A stretch of DNA of 64,000 nucleotides from Escherichia phage vB_EcoM_G2540-3, in the sequence record MK327944.1; one strand, 5' to 3'. The position numbers and the translations under genes were made by a program. Position 1 is the first letter of the stretch, and every line of letters starts with the position of its first letter. Of the stretch, positions 44,840 to 55,006 are shown in pieces. The notes under the pieces were generated by a model. That model had not been told where the DNA came from. It did no database searches and saw only the letters and a list, made by a program, of their open reading frames with translations.

Positions 44840-47800
44840 ATGGCCGAGATTAAAAGAAAGTTCAGAGCAGAAGATGGTCTGGACGCAGGTGGCGATAAAA
44901 TAATCAACGTAGCTTTAGCTGACCGTACCGTAGGAACTGACGGTGTTAACGTTGATTACTTAATTCAAGAAAACACAGTTCAGCAATATGATCCAACTCG
45001 TGGATATTTAAAAGATTTTGTAATCATTTATAATAATCGTTTTTGGGCAGCAACGGATAATATTCCAAAACCTGCTGGAAATTTTAATAGAATTCGTTGG
45101 AAAGCATTACGTACTGATGCCGTATATACAACCGTATCATCTGGACCATATCAATTAAAATCCGGAGAAGCAATTTCAGTAGATACATCAGTTGGCAATG
45201 ACATTGAGTTTACTTTACCACCTTCTCCGCTTGATGGAGAAACCGTAATAATTCAAGATATCGGTGGAAAACCTGGCATAAATCAGGTTAAAATAAATTC
45301 TTCAAATCAGAGTATTGTCAATTTTAGAGGTGAACAGGTACGTTCAGTTTTAATGACTCATCCAAAGTCACAGATGATATTCATTTTTAATAATCGTTTG
45401 TGGCAAATGTATGTTGCTGATTATAGCAGAGAAGCTGCGATTGTTACTCCATCGACTGCGTATCAAGCACAATCTAATGATTTTATCGTACGTAGATTTA
45501 CTTCTGCTGCACCAATTAATGTTAAACTTCCGAGATTTGCTAATCATGGCGATATTATTAATTTCGTTGATTTAGATAAACTGAATCCACTTTATCATAC
45601 AATTGTTACTACATACGATGAAACGACTTCAGTACAAGAAGTTGGAACTCATTCCATTGAAGGCCGTACATCGATTGACGGTTTCTTGATGTTTGACGAT
45701 AATGAGAAATTGTGGAGATTGTTTGACGGGGATAGTAAAGCACGTTTACGCATTATAACAACTAATTCAAATATTCGTCCAAATGAAGAAGTCATGGTAT
45801 TTGGCGCGAATAATGGAACAACCCAAACAATTGAACTTCAGCTTCCGACTGATATTTCTGTTGGTGATACTGTTAAAATTTCCATGAATTACATGAGAAA
45901 AGGACAAACAGTTAAAATCAAAGCTGCTGGTGAAGATAAAATTGCTTCTTCAGTTCAATTGCTGCAATTCCCAAAACGTTCAGAATATCCGCCTGAAGCT
46001 GAATGGGTAACAGTTCAAGAATTAGTTTTTAATGGTGAAACTAATTATGTACCAGTTTTGCAACTTGCTTATATAGAAGATTCTGATGGAAAATACTGGG
46101 TTGTACAGCAAAACGTTCCAACAGTTGAAAGAGTCGATTCTTTAAATAATTCTACTAGAGCAAGATTAGGCGTAATTGCTTTAGCTACACAAGCTCAAGC
46201 AAATGCTGATTTAGAAAATTCTCCACAAAAAGAATTAGCAATTACTCCAGAAACGTTAGCTAATCGTACTGCTACTGAAACTCGCAGAGGTATTGCAAGA
46301 ATAGCAACTACTGCTCAAGTAAATCAGAACACCACATTCTCTTTTGCAGATGACCTTATCATCACTCCTAAAAAGCTGAATGAAAGAACTGCTACAGAAA
46401 CTCGTAGAGGTGTTGCTGAAATTGCTACGCAGCAGGAAACTAATACAGGTATCGATGATACTACAATCATCACTCCTAAAAAGCTTCAAGCTCGTCAAGG
46501 TTCTGAAACATTATCGGGTATTGTAACTTTTGTATCTACTGCAGGAGCTACTCCAGCTTCTAGTCGTGAATTAAATGGTACAAATGTTTATAATAAAAAC
46601 ACTAATAATTTAGTTGTTTCACCTAAAGCTTTGGATCAGTATAAAGCTACTCCAACGCAACAAGGCGCAGTAATTTTAGCAGTTGAAAGTGAAGTAATTG
46701 CTGGACAAAGCCAAGAAGGATGGGCAAATGCGGTTGTAACACCAGAAACGTTACATAAAAAGACATCAACTGATGGAAGAATTGGTTTAATTGAAATTGC
46801 TACGCAAAGCGAAGTTAATACAGGAACTGATTATACTCGCGCAGTCACTCCTAAAACTTTAAATGACCGTAGAGCAACTGAAAGTTTAAGTGGTATAGCT
46901 GAAATTGCTACGCAAGTTGAATTCGACGCAGGCGTCGACGATACTCGTATCTCTACACCATTAAAAATTAAAACCAGATTTAATAGTACTGATCGTACTT
47001 CTGTTGTTGCTCTATCTGGATTAGTTGAATCAGGAACTCTCTGGGACCATTATACCCTTAATATTCTTGAAGCAAATGAGACACAGCGTGGTACACTTCG
47101 TGTAGCTACACAAGTTGAAGCTGCTGCAGGAACATTGGATAATGTTCTAATAACTCCTAAAAAGCTTTTAGGTACTAAATCTACTGAAGCACAGGAAGGC
47201 GTTATTAAAGTTGCAACTCGGTCTGAAACTGTAGCTGGAACGTCAGCAAATACTGCTGTATCTCCAAAAAATTTAAAATGGATTGTGCAGAGTGAACCTA
47301 CTTGGGCAGCGACTACTGCGATAAGAGGTTTTGTTAAAACTTCGTCTGGTTCAATTACATTCGTTGGTAATGATACAGCTGGTTCAACACAGCCATTAGA
47401 ATCATATGAGAAAAATGGTTATGCAGTATCACCATATGAATTAAATCGCGTATTAGCAAATTATTTGCCATTAAAAGCAAAAGCCGTAGATAGTAATTTA
47501 TTAGATGGTCTAGATTCGCTCCAGTTCATTCGTAGGGACATTGCACAAACAGTTAATGGTTCACTAACCTTAACCCAACAAACGAATCTGAGTGCCCCTC
47601 TTGTATCATCTAGTACTGCTACATTCGGTGGATCAGTTTCAGCAAATAGTACATTAACTATTTCTAATACTGGAACGGCAACTCGTCTGATTTTTGAGAA
47701 AGGACCTCAAACTGGAACAAACCCGGCTCAAACGATGACAGTCAGAGTGTGGGGAAATCAATTTAGCGGGGAATCAGACACAACACGTTCTACCGTATTT

Positions 47801-48709
47801 GAAGTTAGTGATGAAACGTCTAGTCATTTTTATTCTCAGCGTAATAAAGCTGGAAATATAACATTTAATATCAACGGTACAGTAACACCGATAAATGTTA
47901 ATGCTTCAGGAACATTGAATGCAAATGGTGTAGCAACATTTGGTAATTCAGTCACTGCAACTGGTGAAATTATTTCTCGAAGCGCAAATGCTTTCCGTGC
48001 TATTAACGGAAATTATGGTTTCATTGTTCGCAATGATGGATCAGTAACGAATTTTATGCTTACTGCATCGGGTGATCAGACTGGTGGATTTAATGGATTA
48101 CGTCCAGTATCAATTAATAATCAATCTGGTCAGGTTACAATTGGTGAAAGCTTAATCATTGCAAAAGGTGCTACTATAAGTTCAGGCGGTTTAACTGTTA
48201 ACTCGAGAATTCGTTCTCAAGGTACTAAAACTTCTGATTTATACACTCGCGCACCAACATCTGATACAGTAGGATTCTGGTCAATTGATATTAATGATTC
48301 AGCCACTTATAATCAATTCCCTGGTTATTTTAAAATGGTTGAAAAAACTAATGAAGTGACTGGTCTTCCATATTTAGAACGTGGCGAAGAAGTTAAATCT
48401 CCTGGTACATTGACTCAGTTTGGTAACACACTTGATTCACTTTACCAAGATTGGATTACTTATCCAACGACCCCAGAAGCACGTACCACTCGCTGGACAC
48501 GTACATGGCAGAAAACCAAAAACTCTTGGTCAAGTTTTGTTCAGGTATTTGACGGAGGTAACCCTCCTCAACCTTCAGATATAGGAGCGATCCCATCTGA
48601 TAATGGAATAATAGGTAATCTTACTATTCGCGATTTCTTGCGAATTGGTAATGTTCGCATTATTCCTGACCCAGTGAATAAAACTGTTAAATTTGAGTGG
48701 ATTGAATAA
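44840..48709 (+). CDS. 34: Long tail fibre proximal subunit gp34
   Basis: 1289 aa, same length as T4 gp34; repetitive …ETRRGIA.IAT… motifs. Confidence 0.93.
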   Translation: MAEIKRKFRAEDGLDAGGDKIINVALADRTVGTDGVNVDYLIQENTVQQYDPTRGYLKDFVIIYNNRFWAATDNIPKPAGNFNRIRWKALRTDAVYTTVSSGPYQLKSGEAISVDTSVGNDIEFTLPPSPLDGETVIIQDIGGKPGINQVKINSSNQSIVNFRGEQVRSVLMTHPKSQMIFIFNNRLWQMYVADYSREAAIVTPSTAYQAQSNDFIVRRFTSAAPINVKLPRFANHGDIINFVDLDKLNPLYHTIVTTYDETTSVQEVGTHSIEGRTSIDGFLMFDDNEKLWRLFDGDSKARLRIITTNSNIRPNEEVMVFGANNGTTQTIELQLPTDISVGDTVKISMNYMRKGQTVKIKAAGEDKIASSVQLLQFPKRSEYPPEAEWVTVQELVFNGETNYVPVLQLAYIEDSDGKYWVVQQNVPTVERVDSLNNSTRARLGVIALATQAQANADLENSPQKELAITPETLANRTATETRRGIARIATTAQVNQNTTFSFADDLIITPKKLNERTATETRRGVAEIATQQETNTGIDDTTIITPKKLQARQGSETLSGIVTFVSTAGATPASSRELNGTNVYNKNTNNLVVSPKALDQYKATPTQQGAVILAVESEVIAGQSQEGWANAVVTPETLHKKTSTDGRIGLIEIATQSEVNTGTDYTRAVTPKTLNDRRATESLSGIAEIATQVEFDAGVDDTRISTPLKIKTRFNSTDRTSVVALSGLVESGTLWDHYTLNILEANETQRGTLRVATQVEAAAGTLDNVLITPKKLLGTKSTEAQEGVIKVATRSETVAGTSANTAVSPKNLKWIVQSEPTWAATTAIRGFVKTSSGSITFVGNDTAGSTQPLESYEKNGYAVSPYELNRVLANYLPLKAKAVDSNLLDGLDSLQFIRRDIAQTVNGSLTLTQQTNLSAPLVSSSTATFGGSVSANSTLTISNTGTATRLIFEKGPQTGTNPAQTMTVRVWGNQFSGESDTTRSTVFEVSDETSSHFYSQRNKAGNITFNINGTVTPINVNASGTLNANGVATFGNSVTATGEIISRSANAFRAINGNYGFIVRNDGSVTNFMLTASGDQTGGFNGLRPVSINNQSGQVTIGESLIIAKGATISSGGLTVNSRIRSQGTKTSDLYTRAPTSDTVGFWSIDINDSATYNQFPGYFKMVEKTNEVTGLPYLERGEEVKSPGTLTQFGNTLDSLYQDWITYPTTPEARTTRWTRTWQKTKNSWSSFVQVFDGGNPPQPSDIGAIPSDNGIIGNLTIRDFLRIGNVRIIPDPVNKTVKFEWIE

Positions 48710-50554: not shown

Positions 50555-53503
50555 ATGGCTACTTTAAAACAAATACAATTTAAAAGAAGCAAAACTGCAG
50601 GTCAACGTCCTGCTGCTTCAGTATTAGCCGAAGGTGAATTGGCTATAAACTTAAAAGATAAAACAATTTTCACAAAAGATGACTCAGGCAGTGTTATAGA
50701 ATTAGGTTTAAAATATGGAGGAACAATTGATGGTTCTTTAACTGTTAATGGAAATATAATTGGAAATTTAACAGGTAACGCTGCAACTGCAACGAAATTA
50801 AAAACAGCACGAAAAATTAATGGTATATCCTTTGATGGGTCAAAAGATATCACGCTAACTCCATCTGACATAAATGTCAATAGCACAACGTTTATAAAAA
50901 ATAATGGCGAATTACCTGTTGATGCTAATTTAGATACGTATGGGCCTGTTGAAGAATATCTTGGAGTTTGGTCGAAAGCAACTTCAACCAACGCTCAACC
51001 AGCAAATAAATTTCCAGAAGAAAATGCTGTAGGTGTGCTAGAAGTATTTGTGGCCGGTCAATTTGCTGGTACTCAGAGATATACAACTAGATACGGAAAT
51101 GTTTATATTCGTTCCTTGACTGCTACATGGAACGGAGTAAACGGTCCGTGGAGTGCGTGGCGAAATATTCAATCTGGTACTCGTCCACTGTCAACAACGA
51201 TTGATCTTAATGATCTAGGAGGCGCTGAACACCTTGGTTTGTGGCGAAATAGTTCAAATTCCATTGCTACCTTTGACAGAAATTTCCCAGAAGAAGGATC
51301 GTCCGCTCAAGGACTTTTAGAAGTATATGAAGGTGGAAACTATTCTCGCACACAGAGATATACGACCAGATTTGGTGTTGTTTATACTCGTTGTCTTGCT
51401 GCTGCGTGGGATGCTTCTGCGCCTAAATGGGGACCTTGGCAACAAGTCGGTAATGTCACACCGGCGACTTTCTATGACGGAGATCTGAATGATTTTAAAA
51501 CTCCTGGGTTATATAATATTTTAGGCACTGATGCCGTTATTAACTGTCCTACCGGTGAAGGTTTGCCGACTGTTATTGTTGGTTTGCTGGAAGTTAAACA
51601 GCGTGCTTCTGGCGGTGCTATTTTCCAAAAATTTACTACTGCCGGAACGGGTGCAACTACTCGCGATCGTATTTTTGAGCGTGCATATACTGGTGGTGTG
51701 TGGGGTGCATGGAACGAAGTATATACATCTTACTCTCTGCCAATTACTTTAGGTATGGGTGGTATTAAAACTCAATTAGCGGAGCTAGATTGGCAAACAT
51801 TTGATTTTGTTCCTGGTAGTATGTTTAGCGTTCCTTTGAACAAAATAAAGAACATGCCAGCTAATATGAATTGGGGCACGATTGACGGAAACTTAATTAT
51901 GTTTTCTGTTGGTCCTAGCGAGCACACCAGCACAGGACGTACTGTTCAGGTTTGGCGTGGAACTGTATCCCAGACAAACTATCGTTATTTTGTCGTTCGT
52001 GTGTTCGGTAATTCTGGAAATAGAACTTGCACAGTTCGCCGTGTTGTTCTTGAAGATGGATCACATACTTGGACTGCTCAACAAAACTTTAGGGGATTGT
52101 TGAATATCACTGCTGCTGTTAATCTTGGTGCTAATCAGAAAATTTCACTTGCTCCAGGAGCATATATTCAAGCCCCTGCTAGCGGTTCTGGTTCTAATAC
52201 TTACGCGAATCAGAATACTACCATTGCACCATTATATCAGGCCATTGACGATTCAAATAAAAACCAGTTTGCGCCAATTGTTAAACAGAAAAACACTGTA
52301 ACAAATATTACTATGGCTTCTGGTATGGATATTGCTAGTTCAGAATATCGTATCGTTGCTCAGGGTGATTTATCCGCTACTGGAACTACAGCCACTAAAT
52401 TAGCTACATGGCGTTTCTTGCCGTCTGGCCGATTCATGTCACAAAGCCGAGTTTATGCTGGCGCAGCATTCTTGAACACTGATGGTAACATTGCTGGTTC
52501 AATCTGGAAGAAATACAACGATGCAACCAATTTAGATGCTGCCTTGAATACTCGCCTAGGTAAAGGCGGTGATACGATGACAGGTCGGTTAACAATCAAT
52601 GCACCTAATGATTCTATCGTATTATCAACAACTGCTAGTAATTCTTTGCATATTCGCGGTGACATAGACGGGACTGGTAACTGGTATATTGGCAAGGGTG
52701 GTGCTGATAATTCGCTAGCATTTTATAGCTATGCTACTCAGGCGGCAGTACATATCACAAACAATGGTGAGATTTCGCTAAATCCACAAAATATCGCAAT
52801 GGTTAACGTTAACCGCGATCGTGTACACATTAACGGTTCTGGATGGATTGCTAGACAACCGGGTGATTGGGGCAACCAATGGCGAGTAGAAGCTCCATTA
52901 TTCGTCGATCATGGTTATGTTTCACAGGATTGTTATTATCCAATTATTAAAGGAAGAAGTGTAATCACCAATCAAGGGTTTGTAACTGCCGTCGATCTTG
53001 GTATTCGTCGTGTCCCTAACAATTGGGGGCAAGCAATTATTCGTGTTGGATCTGCAGAGGCATCGCCAGCGGCTGAACACCCTAACGCGGTATTTGAATT
53101 TCATTACGACGGTACTTTCTATTCTCCTGGTAATGGTAACTTTAACGATGTGTATATTCGTTCCGATGGTCGTCTTAAGATTAATAAAAAAGAGCTAGAA
53201 AACGGAGCACTTGAAAAAGTATGTCGACTGAAAGTTTATATTTACGATAAAGTTAAGTCTATTAAAGACCGTAGTGTTATTAAACGTGAAGTTGGTATTA
53301 TTGCTCAGGACCTTGAAAAGGAATTACCGGAAGCTGTATCTAAAGTTGAAGTTGATGGATCTGATGTTCTGACAATTTCTAACTCTACAGTGAATGCTCT
53401 TTTAATTAAGGCTATTCAGGAAATGAGTGAAGAAATTAAAGAATTGAAAACGCCTCTCTTTACTAAAATTGCTCGCAAAATTAGTAAATATTTTAAATTC
53501 TAA
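50555..53503 (+). CDS. 37: Long tail fibre distal subunit gp37 with C-terminal intramolecular-chaperone-like domain
   Basis: 982 aa; C-terminus …[36 protein letters not shown]… resembles autoproteolytic chaperone modules of phage fibres. Confidence 0.88.
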
Positions 53504-53539
53504 CAACAAGGGGGAAATGCCCCCTTTGGAGTATAAATT

Positions 53540-54319
53540 ATGGCAGTAGTTGGAGTTCCTGGCTGGATTGGAAGTTCAGCCGTAAATGAAACGGGTCAGC
53601 GCTGGATGAGTCAAGCAGCTGGTCAATTAAGATTGGGTGTTCCTTGCTGGATGAGTCAATTTGCAGGTCGCTCAAGAGAAATTATTCATACACTTGGAGC
53701 AGACCATAACTTCAATGGTCAATGGTTCCGAGATAGATGTTTTGAGGCAGGTAGTACACCTATAGTGTTTAATATCACTGGAGATTTAGTATCATATTCT
53801 AAAGATGTTCCTTTATTCTTCATGTACGGAGATACACCGAATGAATATGTTCAGTTGAATATACACGGCGTAACGATGTATGGACGTGGCGGTAATGGCG
53901 GTAGCAATAGTCCTGGTTCAGCTGGAGGTCATTGTATTCAAAACGATATTGGTGGGAGACTAAGAATTAATAATGGCGGAGCTATTGCTGGAGGCGGCGG
54001 CGGCGGCGGCGGCGGCAACAGGGGTAGACTATCCTTTGACGGCGGAGGCGGTCGTCCATTTGGCGCTGGTGGGTCTTCCTCTCATATGAGTGCTGGTGCA
54101 ACCAGCGGCACTATTTACGCTCCGGGTGCAGGATCTGTCGGTGAGGGGTCTCTTAGTGCATATACAGGCGGGAATGGCGGTGAAGTTGGCTCCGCAGGAG
54201 GTAGATGTAATACTCACGGTACCGGTACAGAATATGACGGCGGTGCTGCTGGTTATGCCGTCATAGGGTCTACACCGACATGGCAAAATGTTGGAGCAAT
54301 ATATGGTCCAAGAGTATAA
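53540..54319 (+). CDS. 38: Receptor-recognising adhesin gp38, T2-type, with glycine-rich motifs
   Basis: 259 aa; conserved N-terminus [43 protein letters not shown]…, C-terminal Gly-rich segments. Confidence 0.85.
53993..54016. repeat. (GGC)8 trinucleotide tract encoding poly-Gly inside gene 38
   Basis: ggcggcggcggcggcggcggcggc read directly. Confidence 0.85.
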
Positions 54320-54349
54320 TTTGAATAAATATCCTTAAAAGGAGGGTCT

Positions 54350-55006
54350 ATGGCAGCACCTAGAATATCATTTTCGCCCTCTGATATTCTGTTTGGTGTT
54401 CTAGATCGCTTGTTCAAAGATAACGCTACCGGGAAGGTTCTTGCTTCCCGAGTAGCTGTCGTAATTCTTTTATTTATGATGGCGATTGTTTGGTATAGGG
54501 GAGATAGTTTCTTTGAGTACTATAAGCAATCAAAGTATGAAACATACAGTGAAATTATTGAAAAGGAAAGAAATGCACGCTTTGAATCTGTCGCCCTGGA
54601 ACAACTCCAGATAGTTCATATATCATCTGAGGCAGACTTTAGTGCGGTGTATTCTTTCCGCCCTAAAAACTTAAACTATTTTGTTGATATTATAGCATAT
54701 GAAGGAAAATTACCTTCAACAATAAGTGAAAAATCACTTGGAGGATATCCTGTTGATAAAACTATGGATGAATATACAGTTCATTTAAATGGACGTCATT
54801 ATTATTCCGACTCAAAATTTGCTTTTTTACCAACTAAAAAGCCTACTCCCGAAATAAACTACATGTACAGTTGTCCATATTTTAATTTGGATAATATCTA
54901 TGCTGGAACGATAACCATGTACTGGTATAGAAATGATCATATAAGTAATGACCGCCTTGAATCAATATGTGCTCAGGCGGCCAGAATATTAGGAAGGGCT
55001 AAATAA
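54350..55006 (+). CDS. t: Holin T
   Basis: 218 aa, N-terminal TM segment VAVVILLFMMAIVWY, large periplasmic domain. Confidence 0.92.
   Translation: MAAPRISFSPSDILFGVLDRLFKDNATGKVLASRVAVVILLFMMAIVWYRGDSFFEYYKQSKYETYSEIIEKERNARFESVALEQLQIVHISSEADFSAVYSFRPKNLNYFVDIIAYEGKLPSTISEKSLGGYPVDKTMDEYTVHLNGRHYYSDSKFAFLPTKKPTPEINYMYSCPYFNLDNIYAGTITMYWYRNDHISNDRLESICAQAARILGRAK

Follow-up and report, generated by a model that had tools for sequence, protein, structure and literature searches.

The long tail fibre tip of Escherichia phage vB_EcoM_G2540-3 is very probably of the T2/S16 type, with a predicted self-cleaving chaperone domain on gp37 and a separate gp38 adhesin

The DNA analysed here (the window, a stretch of 64,000 nucleotides from sequence record MK327944.1 of Escherichia phage vB_EcoM_G2540-3) was 95–97% identical across 24 kb to Tequatrovirus genomes such as those of Paracelsus/Bas36 and JB75. 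The tail fibre block in the window reads g34 (44840-48709), g35, g36, g37, g38 and the holin gene t (54350-55006), the last assigned by its match to the Phage_holin_T profile (E 2e-117). Gene 38 is placed directly 3' of gene 37, which ends at 53503, and 5' of t. The two genes considered here are:

50555..53503, + strand: gene 37, long tail fibre distal subunit precursor, an open reading frame of 982 aa
53540..54319, + strand: gene 38, T2-type tail fibre adhesin, 259 aa (assigned from PF05268, PF21721 and the PDB entries 9V85 and 6F45_D)

In PHROGs, gp37 fell into phrog_1699, labelled 'long tail fiber protein distal subunit' (E 2.5e-204). Its gene was 99.2% identical at the DNA level to g37 of phage G2540, and the protein differed from its relatives by 3 residues (G2540), 10 residues (JB75) and 26 residues (Bas36).

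The 259 residues of gp38 were covered by two Pfam families, with residues 1-42 matching Gp38_N (PF21721, E 9.5e-21) and residues 47-259 matching GP38 (PF05268, E 2.8e-69). The PHROGs assignment was phrog_2056, 'host specificity' (E 5e-108). Searches against solved adhesins returned PP01 gp38 (PDB 9V85, E 1.3e-77) and S16 gp38 (6F45_D, E 9e-53), and the closest proteins overall were gp38 of NBG2 (99.6% identical, 1 residue different) and of T4_ev240 (99.2%). Two regions of gene 38 were delimited from these matches:

53540..53665, + strand: N-terminal attachment domain of gp38, residues 1-42, with Trp9, Trp22 and Trp37 (Gp38_N match; Trp residues aligned with S16)
53885..54244, + strand: glycine-rich motifs and hypervariable segments of gp38 (residues ~116-235), the receptor-binding polyglycine sandwich (alignments with S16 and PP01 gp38)

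All three Trp residues of the N-terminal domain (W9, W22, W37) aligned with Trp residues of S16 gp38, where they are the prongs that enter pockets of the cleaved gp37 tip (PMC6851490). In the C-terminal half of gp38, the alignments showed conserved glycine-rich motifs alternating with variable stretches. Over residues 116-259 the protein was identical to gp38 of FL12 at 138/144 positions (96%), to that of FL20 at 127/144 (88%) and to that of G2540 at 71/144. The N-terminal domain scored 30-31 identities out of 46 against the T2/FL12 subtype. Judged from their sequences, both this domain and the chaperone domain of gp37 described below are of a subtype other than T2/FL12, which is consistent with the co-variation reported between gp37 C-terminal and gp38 N-terminal subtypes (PMC3157838).

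Whole-length comparison of gp38 gave 93.0% identity to FL20 and 91.9% to FL12, two phages whose plating is lost on ompA deletion mutants (PMC12032242). This similarity to two OmpA-dependent adhesins leads us to propose OmpA as the probable receptor of gp38. We do not word the assignment more firmly because single hypervariable-segment substitutions can switch the specificity of gp38 (highlights of PMC10194368). The same susceptibility of gp38 to retargeting by small changes lends some weight to another reading, in which the T2-type architecture is right and the receptor is a different protein such as Tsx, OmpC, OmpF or FadL. Over residues 116-259, gp38 has 6 differences to FL12 and 17 to FL20. 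Also in favour of the other reading, the nearly identical proteins of NBG2 and T4_ev240 have no published receptor in the papers searched; PMC12032242 mentions none for these two or for the other nearest gp38 relatives (kvi, IME340, JB75 and RB14). Over these residues gp38 is nevertheless much like the adhesins of two OmpA-dependent phages, at the identities given above, and the receptor is reported to be predictable from gp38 phylogeny (PMC12032242). We consider a receptor other than OmpA unlikely, while allowing it a real chance, and keep OmpA as the probable one.

We then turn to the C-terminus of gp37, whose features are:

53162..53500, + strand: intramolecular chaperone / auto-processing domain of 113 aa, which would be released once the trimer has folded (PF13884, 6F45_A alignment, AF2, Foldseek)
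53147..53161, + strand: DVYIR at residues 865-869, predicted to end mature gp37 as its last beta-strand and to form the gp38 docking face after cleavage (VYIR invariant in 16 homologues)
53162..53164, + strand: Ser870 codon, predicted nucleophile at the scissile position R869/S870 (aligned with the cleavage Ser of S16 gp37)
53177..53179, + strand: Lys875 codon, predicted general base of a Ser-Lys dyad (i, i+5), spaced as in T5 pb1 and MYRF
53381..53491, + strand: long C-terminal helix (residues ~943-979), presumed trimeric coiled coil (positions 88-124 of the 127-aa query, helical by DSSP in the AF2 model)
53459..53500, + strand: basic amphipathic 14-residue tail ending the chaperone domain, common to gp37 of NBG2, G2540, JB75 and Bas36

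The last 127 residues of gp37, encoded by 53120..53500 and containing the letters quoted in the earlier note, served as the query. Residues 870-928 matched Peptidase_S74 (PF13884), which Pfam describes as 'chaperone of endosialidase', with 47 bits (E 3e-12), and the match spanned model positions 1-57 of 58 with Ser870 at model position 1. The score lies above the curated cut-off of the family (gathering threshold, 22 bits), so that the profile search proposed in the earlier note came out positive. The domain as a whole occupies residues 870-982 of 982, the extreme C-terminus of the protein. The tail also aligned with the S16 gp37 construct in PDB 6F45_A, cleavage motif included, and more weakly with two further PDB entries, 8JOV (a tail fibre) and 7DC3 (the MyRF ICA domain).

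In an AF2 model of the 127-residue tail (mean pLDDT 79.7), a helix of 37 residues comes after a small alpha/beta unit. When this model was compared with the PDB by Foldseek, the best 12 matches were all ICA/IMC domains, with MyRF ICA 7DC3 (TM 0.72, probability 1.00) in first place and GA-1 3GUD, K1F endosialidase 3GW6 and T5 pb1 4UW8 among the others. In K1F and T5, an Arg of the neighbouring subunit completes the oxyanion hole and acts as a folding sensor. The AF2 model is of a monomer, so that the trimer and this Arg lie outside its reach. From its family, the chaperone domain of gp37 is expected to be trimeric, and the IMC of T5 pb1 has a central trimeric coiled coil (PMC4690869). The earlier note had likened the last ~110 residues of gp37 to the self-cleaving chaperones of other fibres, and the Peptidase_S74 score, the intact dyad and the ICA/IMC fold bear this out. 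The length it gave also stood, at 113 residues, while its starting point at 53120 did not, the domain starting 14 codons further on at 53162.

At the start of the domain gp37 reads DVYIR/SDGRLK, with Ser870 and Lys875 in place, and the motif VYIRSDxRLK was invariant in 16 aligned homologues including those of T2, FL12 and NBG2. We used phmmer for the breadth of the family because a word-indexed search with the 127-aa tail gave just 19 close relatives, mostly fragments, which were used as the AF2 alignment only. The phmmer search (exhaustive, over 1.84 billion cluster representatives) returned 3669 representatives at E<=1e-3. Among the best 150 of these 3669, S-x4-K was kept in 146 and the stricter S[DNE]x[RK]xK in 137, and the dyad motif lay at a median of 98 aa before the C-terminus of mostly long proteins. 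The spacing matches the catalytic dyads S1264/K1269 of T5 pb1 (PMC4690869) and S578/K583 of MYRF (PMC3742443). In the Tequatrovirus fPS phages, a DVYIR^SDGRLKI site has been annotated, with the conclusion that we also reach, by analogy with DLNVS^SDRRIKK of S16 (PMC7917993, 2021), whose IMC comprises 113 residues and is autocleaved (PMC7917993).

On the strength of the Peptidase_S74 profile match, the Ser-x4-Lys spacing, the conservation of the motif and the fold of the tail, we predict that gp37 is cut between R869 and S870 (nt 53161/53162), which would free 113 residues as in S16. Autoproteolytic release is experimental for T2, S16, T5 pb1 and K1F (PMC3157838, PMC7917993, PMC4690869), and gp37 of T2 and T6 is processed and then capped by gp38 (PMC3157838, citing Drexler, Riede and Henning 1986). 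We find it highly improbable that the domain of vB_EcoM_G2540-3 is instead a degenerate relic, left uncut and kept on the virion, with gp38 binding elsewhere or serving in assembly only. The strict motif is missing from 13 of the 150 best representatives, which speaks for such a relic, but the looser S-x4-K is retained in nearly all of them, as counted above, and in vB_EcoM_G2540-3 itself Ser870, Lys875 and the entire VYIRSDxRLK are intact as well as invariant in close homologues. Moreover, T2 gp37 carries the same motif and is experimentally processed (PMC3157838), and an uncut domain would block the gp38 docking face known from S16 (PMC7917993).

Predicted cleavage and a T2-type adhesin together set this tip apart from that of T4. 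The difference between the T4 and T2-type tips is long established (PMC3157838, PMC6851490, PMC7917993), and the T4/T2 dichotomy is also noted by RefSeq under T4 gene 38. vB_EcoM_G2540-3 and T4 have the same locus, g34-g35-g36-g37-g38-t, and the N-terminal and shaft parts of their fibres are homologous. In T4, however, gp37 bears its own receptor-binding tip, Peptidase_S74 is absent and gp38 is an unrelated assembly chaperone. The controls separated the two types: in Pfam, T4 gp37 gave no Peptidase_S74 match and T4 gp38 no adhesin-family match, whereas T2 gp37 carried Peptidase_S74 at residues 1243-1300 and T2 gp38 matched both adhesin families (GP38 and Gp38_N). BLASTP found no similarity of gp38 to T4 gp38 (E 1.8), nor of the gp37 tail to the T4 gp37 tip (E 6.8). 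The earlier note had called gp38 a T2-type adhesin rather than a T4-type chaperone and had deduced an architecture unlike that of T4; both statements agree with these comparisons and with the PF05268 and PF21721 matches, and the 259 residues, conserved N-terminus and Gly-rich C-terminus that it quoted for gp38 were found in the open reading frame at 53540..54319. It is scarcely credible that gp38 is a T4-like assembly chaperone missing from the virion, with gp37 itself binding the receptor, since the gene position and gene number, which are as in T4, stand against a gp38 that has no likeness to T4 gp38 and matches the adhesin families and the solved S16 and PP01 adhesins strongly, and against a gp37 C-terminus that is not related to the receptor-binding tip of T4 gp37.

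We are highly confident that the tail fibre tip of vB_EcoM_G2540-3 is the standard T2/S16 type of a Tequatrovirus. The analysis itself establishes which domains are present, with their catalytic residues and fold, in what order the genes lie and how nearly identical the phage is to characterised ones. Phage T2 gp37/gp38 were reportedly the subject of Riede et al. in 1987, and the crystal structure of Salmonella phage S16 gp37-gp38 (PDB 6F45) was reported by Dunne et al. in 2018. Experimentally, the architecture goes back to the observation that T2 gp37 is proteolytically processed (Drexler, Riede and Henning 1986, via PMC3157838), and the atomic picture of the tip comes from the S16 structure (PMC6851490).

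The tip shares with T2 the gene order, the Peptidase_S74 domain of gp37, the VYIRSDxRLK motif and a gp38 that belongs to both Pfam families. It differs in the N-terminal subtype of gp38 (30/46 identities) with the matching subtype of the gp37 IMC. T2 also lacks the 14-residue tail, its hairpin between the two genes is another one and its receptor is FadL. With S16 it has in common a gp37 that ends in a 113-residue chaperone, autocleaved in S16 and predicted to be so here, and the cleavage motif x^SDxRxK, together with a presumably monomeric gp38 in which three Trp for docking are combined with a beta-helix and a polyglycine sandwich. The gp37 shaft before the cut, on the other hand, is unrelated to that of S16 save for the last few residues, and S16 is a Salmonella phage classified in another genus and has other hypervariable segments in gp38, from which a different receptor specificity is expected. 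More distant systems, namely the K1F endosialidase, T5 pb1, GA-1 and the eukaryotic MYRF ICA, share the Pfam family, the Ser-x4-Lys dyad and the fold. In K1F, T5 pb1 and GA-1 the domain serves tailspikes or fibres with a receptor-binding function of their own, and in MYRF it serves a transcription factor. In vB_EcoM_G2540-3, unlike in any of these, cleavage of gp37 would also make the docking site of a separate adhesin.

By homology with these systems we infer gp37 cleavage, a 3:1 docking of gp37 with gp38 and the use of the receptor, in the following sequence of events. Gene 37 would be translated as a 982-residue precursor whose C-terminal 113 residues are the chaperone. Three chaperone domains would come together as a coiled-coil trimer and nucleate or template the triple beta-helix upstream of them. 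Correct folding of the trimer would set Lys875 to activate Ser870, upon which the R869/S870 bond would be cut and the chaperone would depart, leaving the DVYIR strands exposed as the flat end of the fibre. One gp38 monomer would then dock on the gp37 tip through its three Trp-tipped helices (W9, W22, W37), and the loops of its polyglycine sandwich, the hypervariable segments, would contact the outer-membrane protein, most probably OmpA.

The T2-type tip found here belongs to a system that was known before, its architecture, its mechanism and the exact cleavage motif having all been published. This follows from the 1986 processing of T2 gp37, the 2018 S16 structure, the 2021 DVYIR^SDGRLKI annotation and the near-identical proteins already deposited. 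For annotation, its value is that the mature end of gp37 can be set, as a prediction, at R869. Likewise, gp38 rather than gp37 would be the host-range determinant to compare or engineer in vB_EcoM_G2540-3. The locus also provides a further example of gp38 cassette exchange among Tequatrovirus lineages, to which two features at the boundary of the genes relate or lie close:

53365..53545, no strand: recombination junction at which a gene 37 like that of G2540 meets a gene 38 like that of NBG2 (60-nt identity bins)
53510..53524, + strand: GGGGG-AAATG-CCCCC, a GC hairpin between g37 and g38, kept in relatives and followed by the Shine-Dalgarno sequence GGAG (53528-53531)

When identity was followed in 60-nt bins, the window was 100% identical to G2540 up to ~53365 and 98-100% identical to NBG2 from ~53425 to 54346, every bin on the NBG2 side standing at 100% except one at 98%. 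The segment 53425-53545 is itself identical in G2540 and NBG2. Residue T945 of gp37 is as in NBG2, unlike in G2540, JB75 and Bas36. This switch of the bins from G2540 to NBG2 identity indicates that the gp38 cassette was exchanged, with a left crossover that would lie either within the final ~45 codons of gene 37 or between the two genes. In the phage collection, no record had exactly this pair of gp37 and gp38, and the best full-length match across 52500-54400 reached 92%. In gp38 of FL12, an N-terminus of the T2 type is joined to a receptor region, in the C-terminal part, that is near-identical to that of vB_EcoM_G2540-3, a mix which points to a second site of crossover close to gp38 residue ~47.

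T2 and FL12 have a hairpin at the same place in the intergenic region, GAGGGC-TTCG-GCCCTC with a UUCG tetraloop, so that the position is conserved and the sequence is not. The hairpin may serve in mRNA stability or processing. We do not call it a terminator, as the terminator scan made no call on the + strand, just three T following the hairpin. We also rejected TATAAAT before the gp38 ATG as a T4 late promoter; it sits between the Shine-Dalgarno sequence and the start codon and would leave no leader.

The basic 14-residue tail of the chaperone domain differs once within the tail in JB75 (A973T), and sequence alignment showed it to be absent from the T2/FL12 subtype of gp37. One could speculate that the released 113-residue fragment with its basic tail acts again after cleavage, in fibre assembly, at the membrane or in choosing the matching gp38 N-terminal subtype and, separately, that the crossover in the 3' end of g37 could mark the conserved helix out as a place where adhesin cassettes are regularly exchanged by recombination; we think these ideas very unlikely to hold.

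The N-terminal half of gp37 carries repeats. Residues ~134-298 (50954-51448) form 2 tandem modules of ~75 aa that are 42% identical (E 4e-20), and a degenerate third copy is possible at residues ~340-390. The modules gave no match among PDB sequences. Their pattern is ...GxLEVxxxGxxxxTQRYTTRxGxVYxRxLxAxW...W, and PHROGs names the module region (50954-51448) phrog_4618, 'tail collar fiber protein'.
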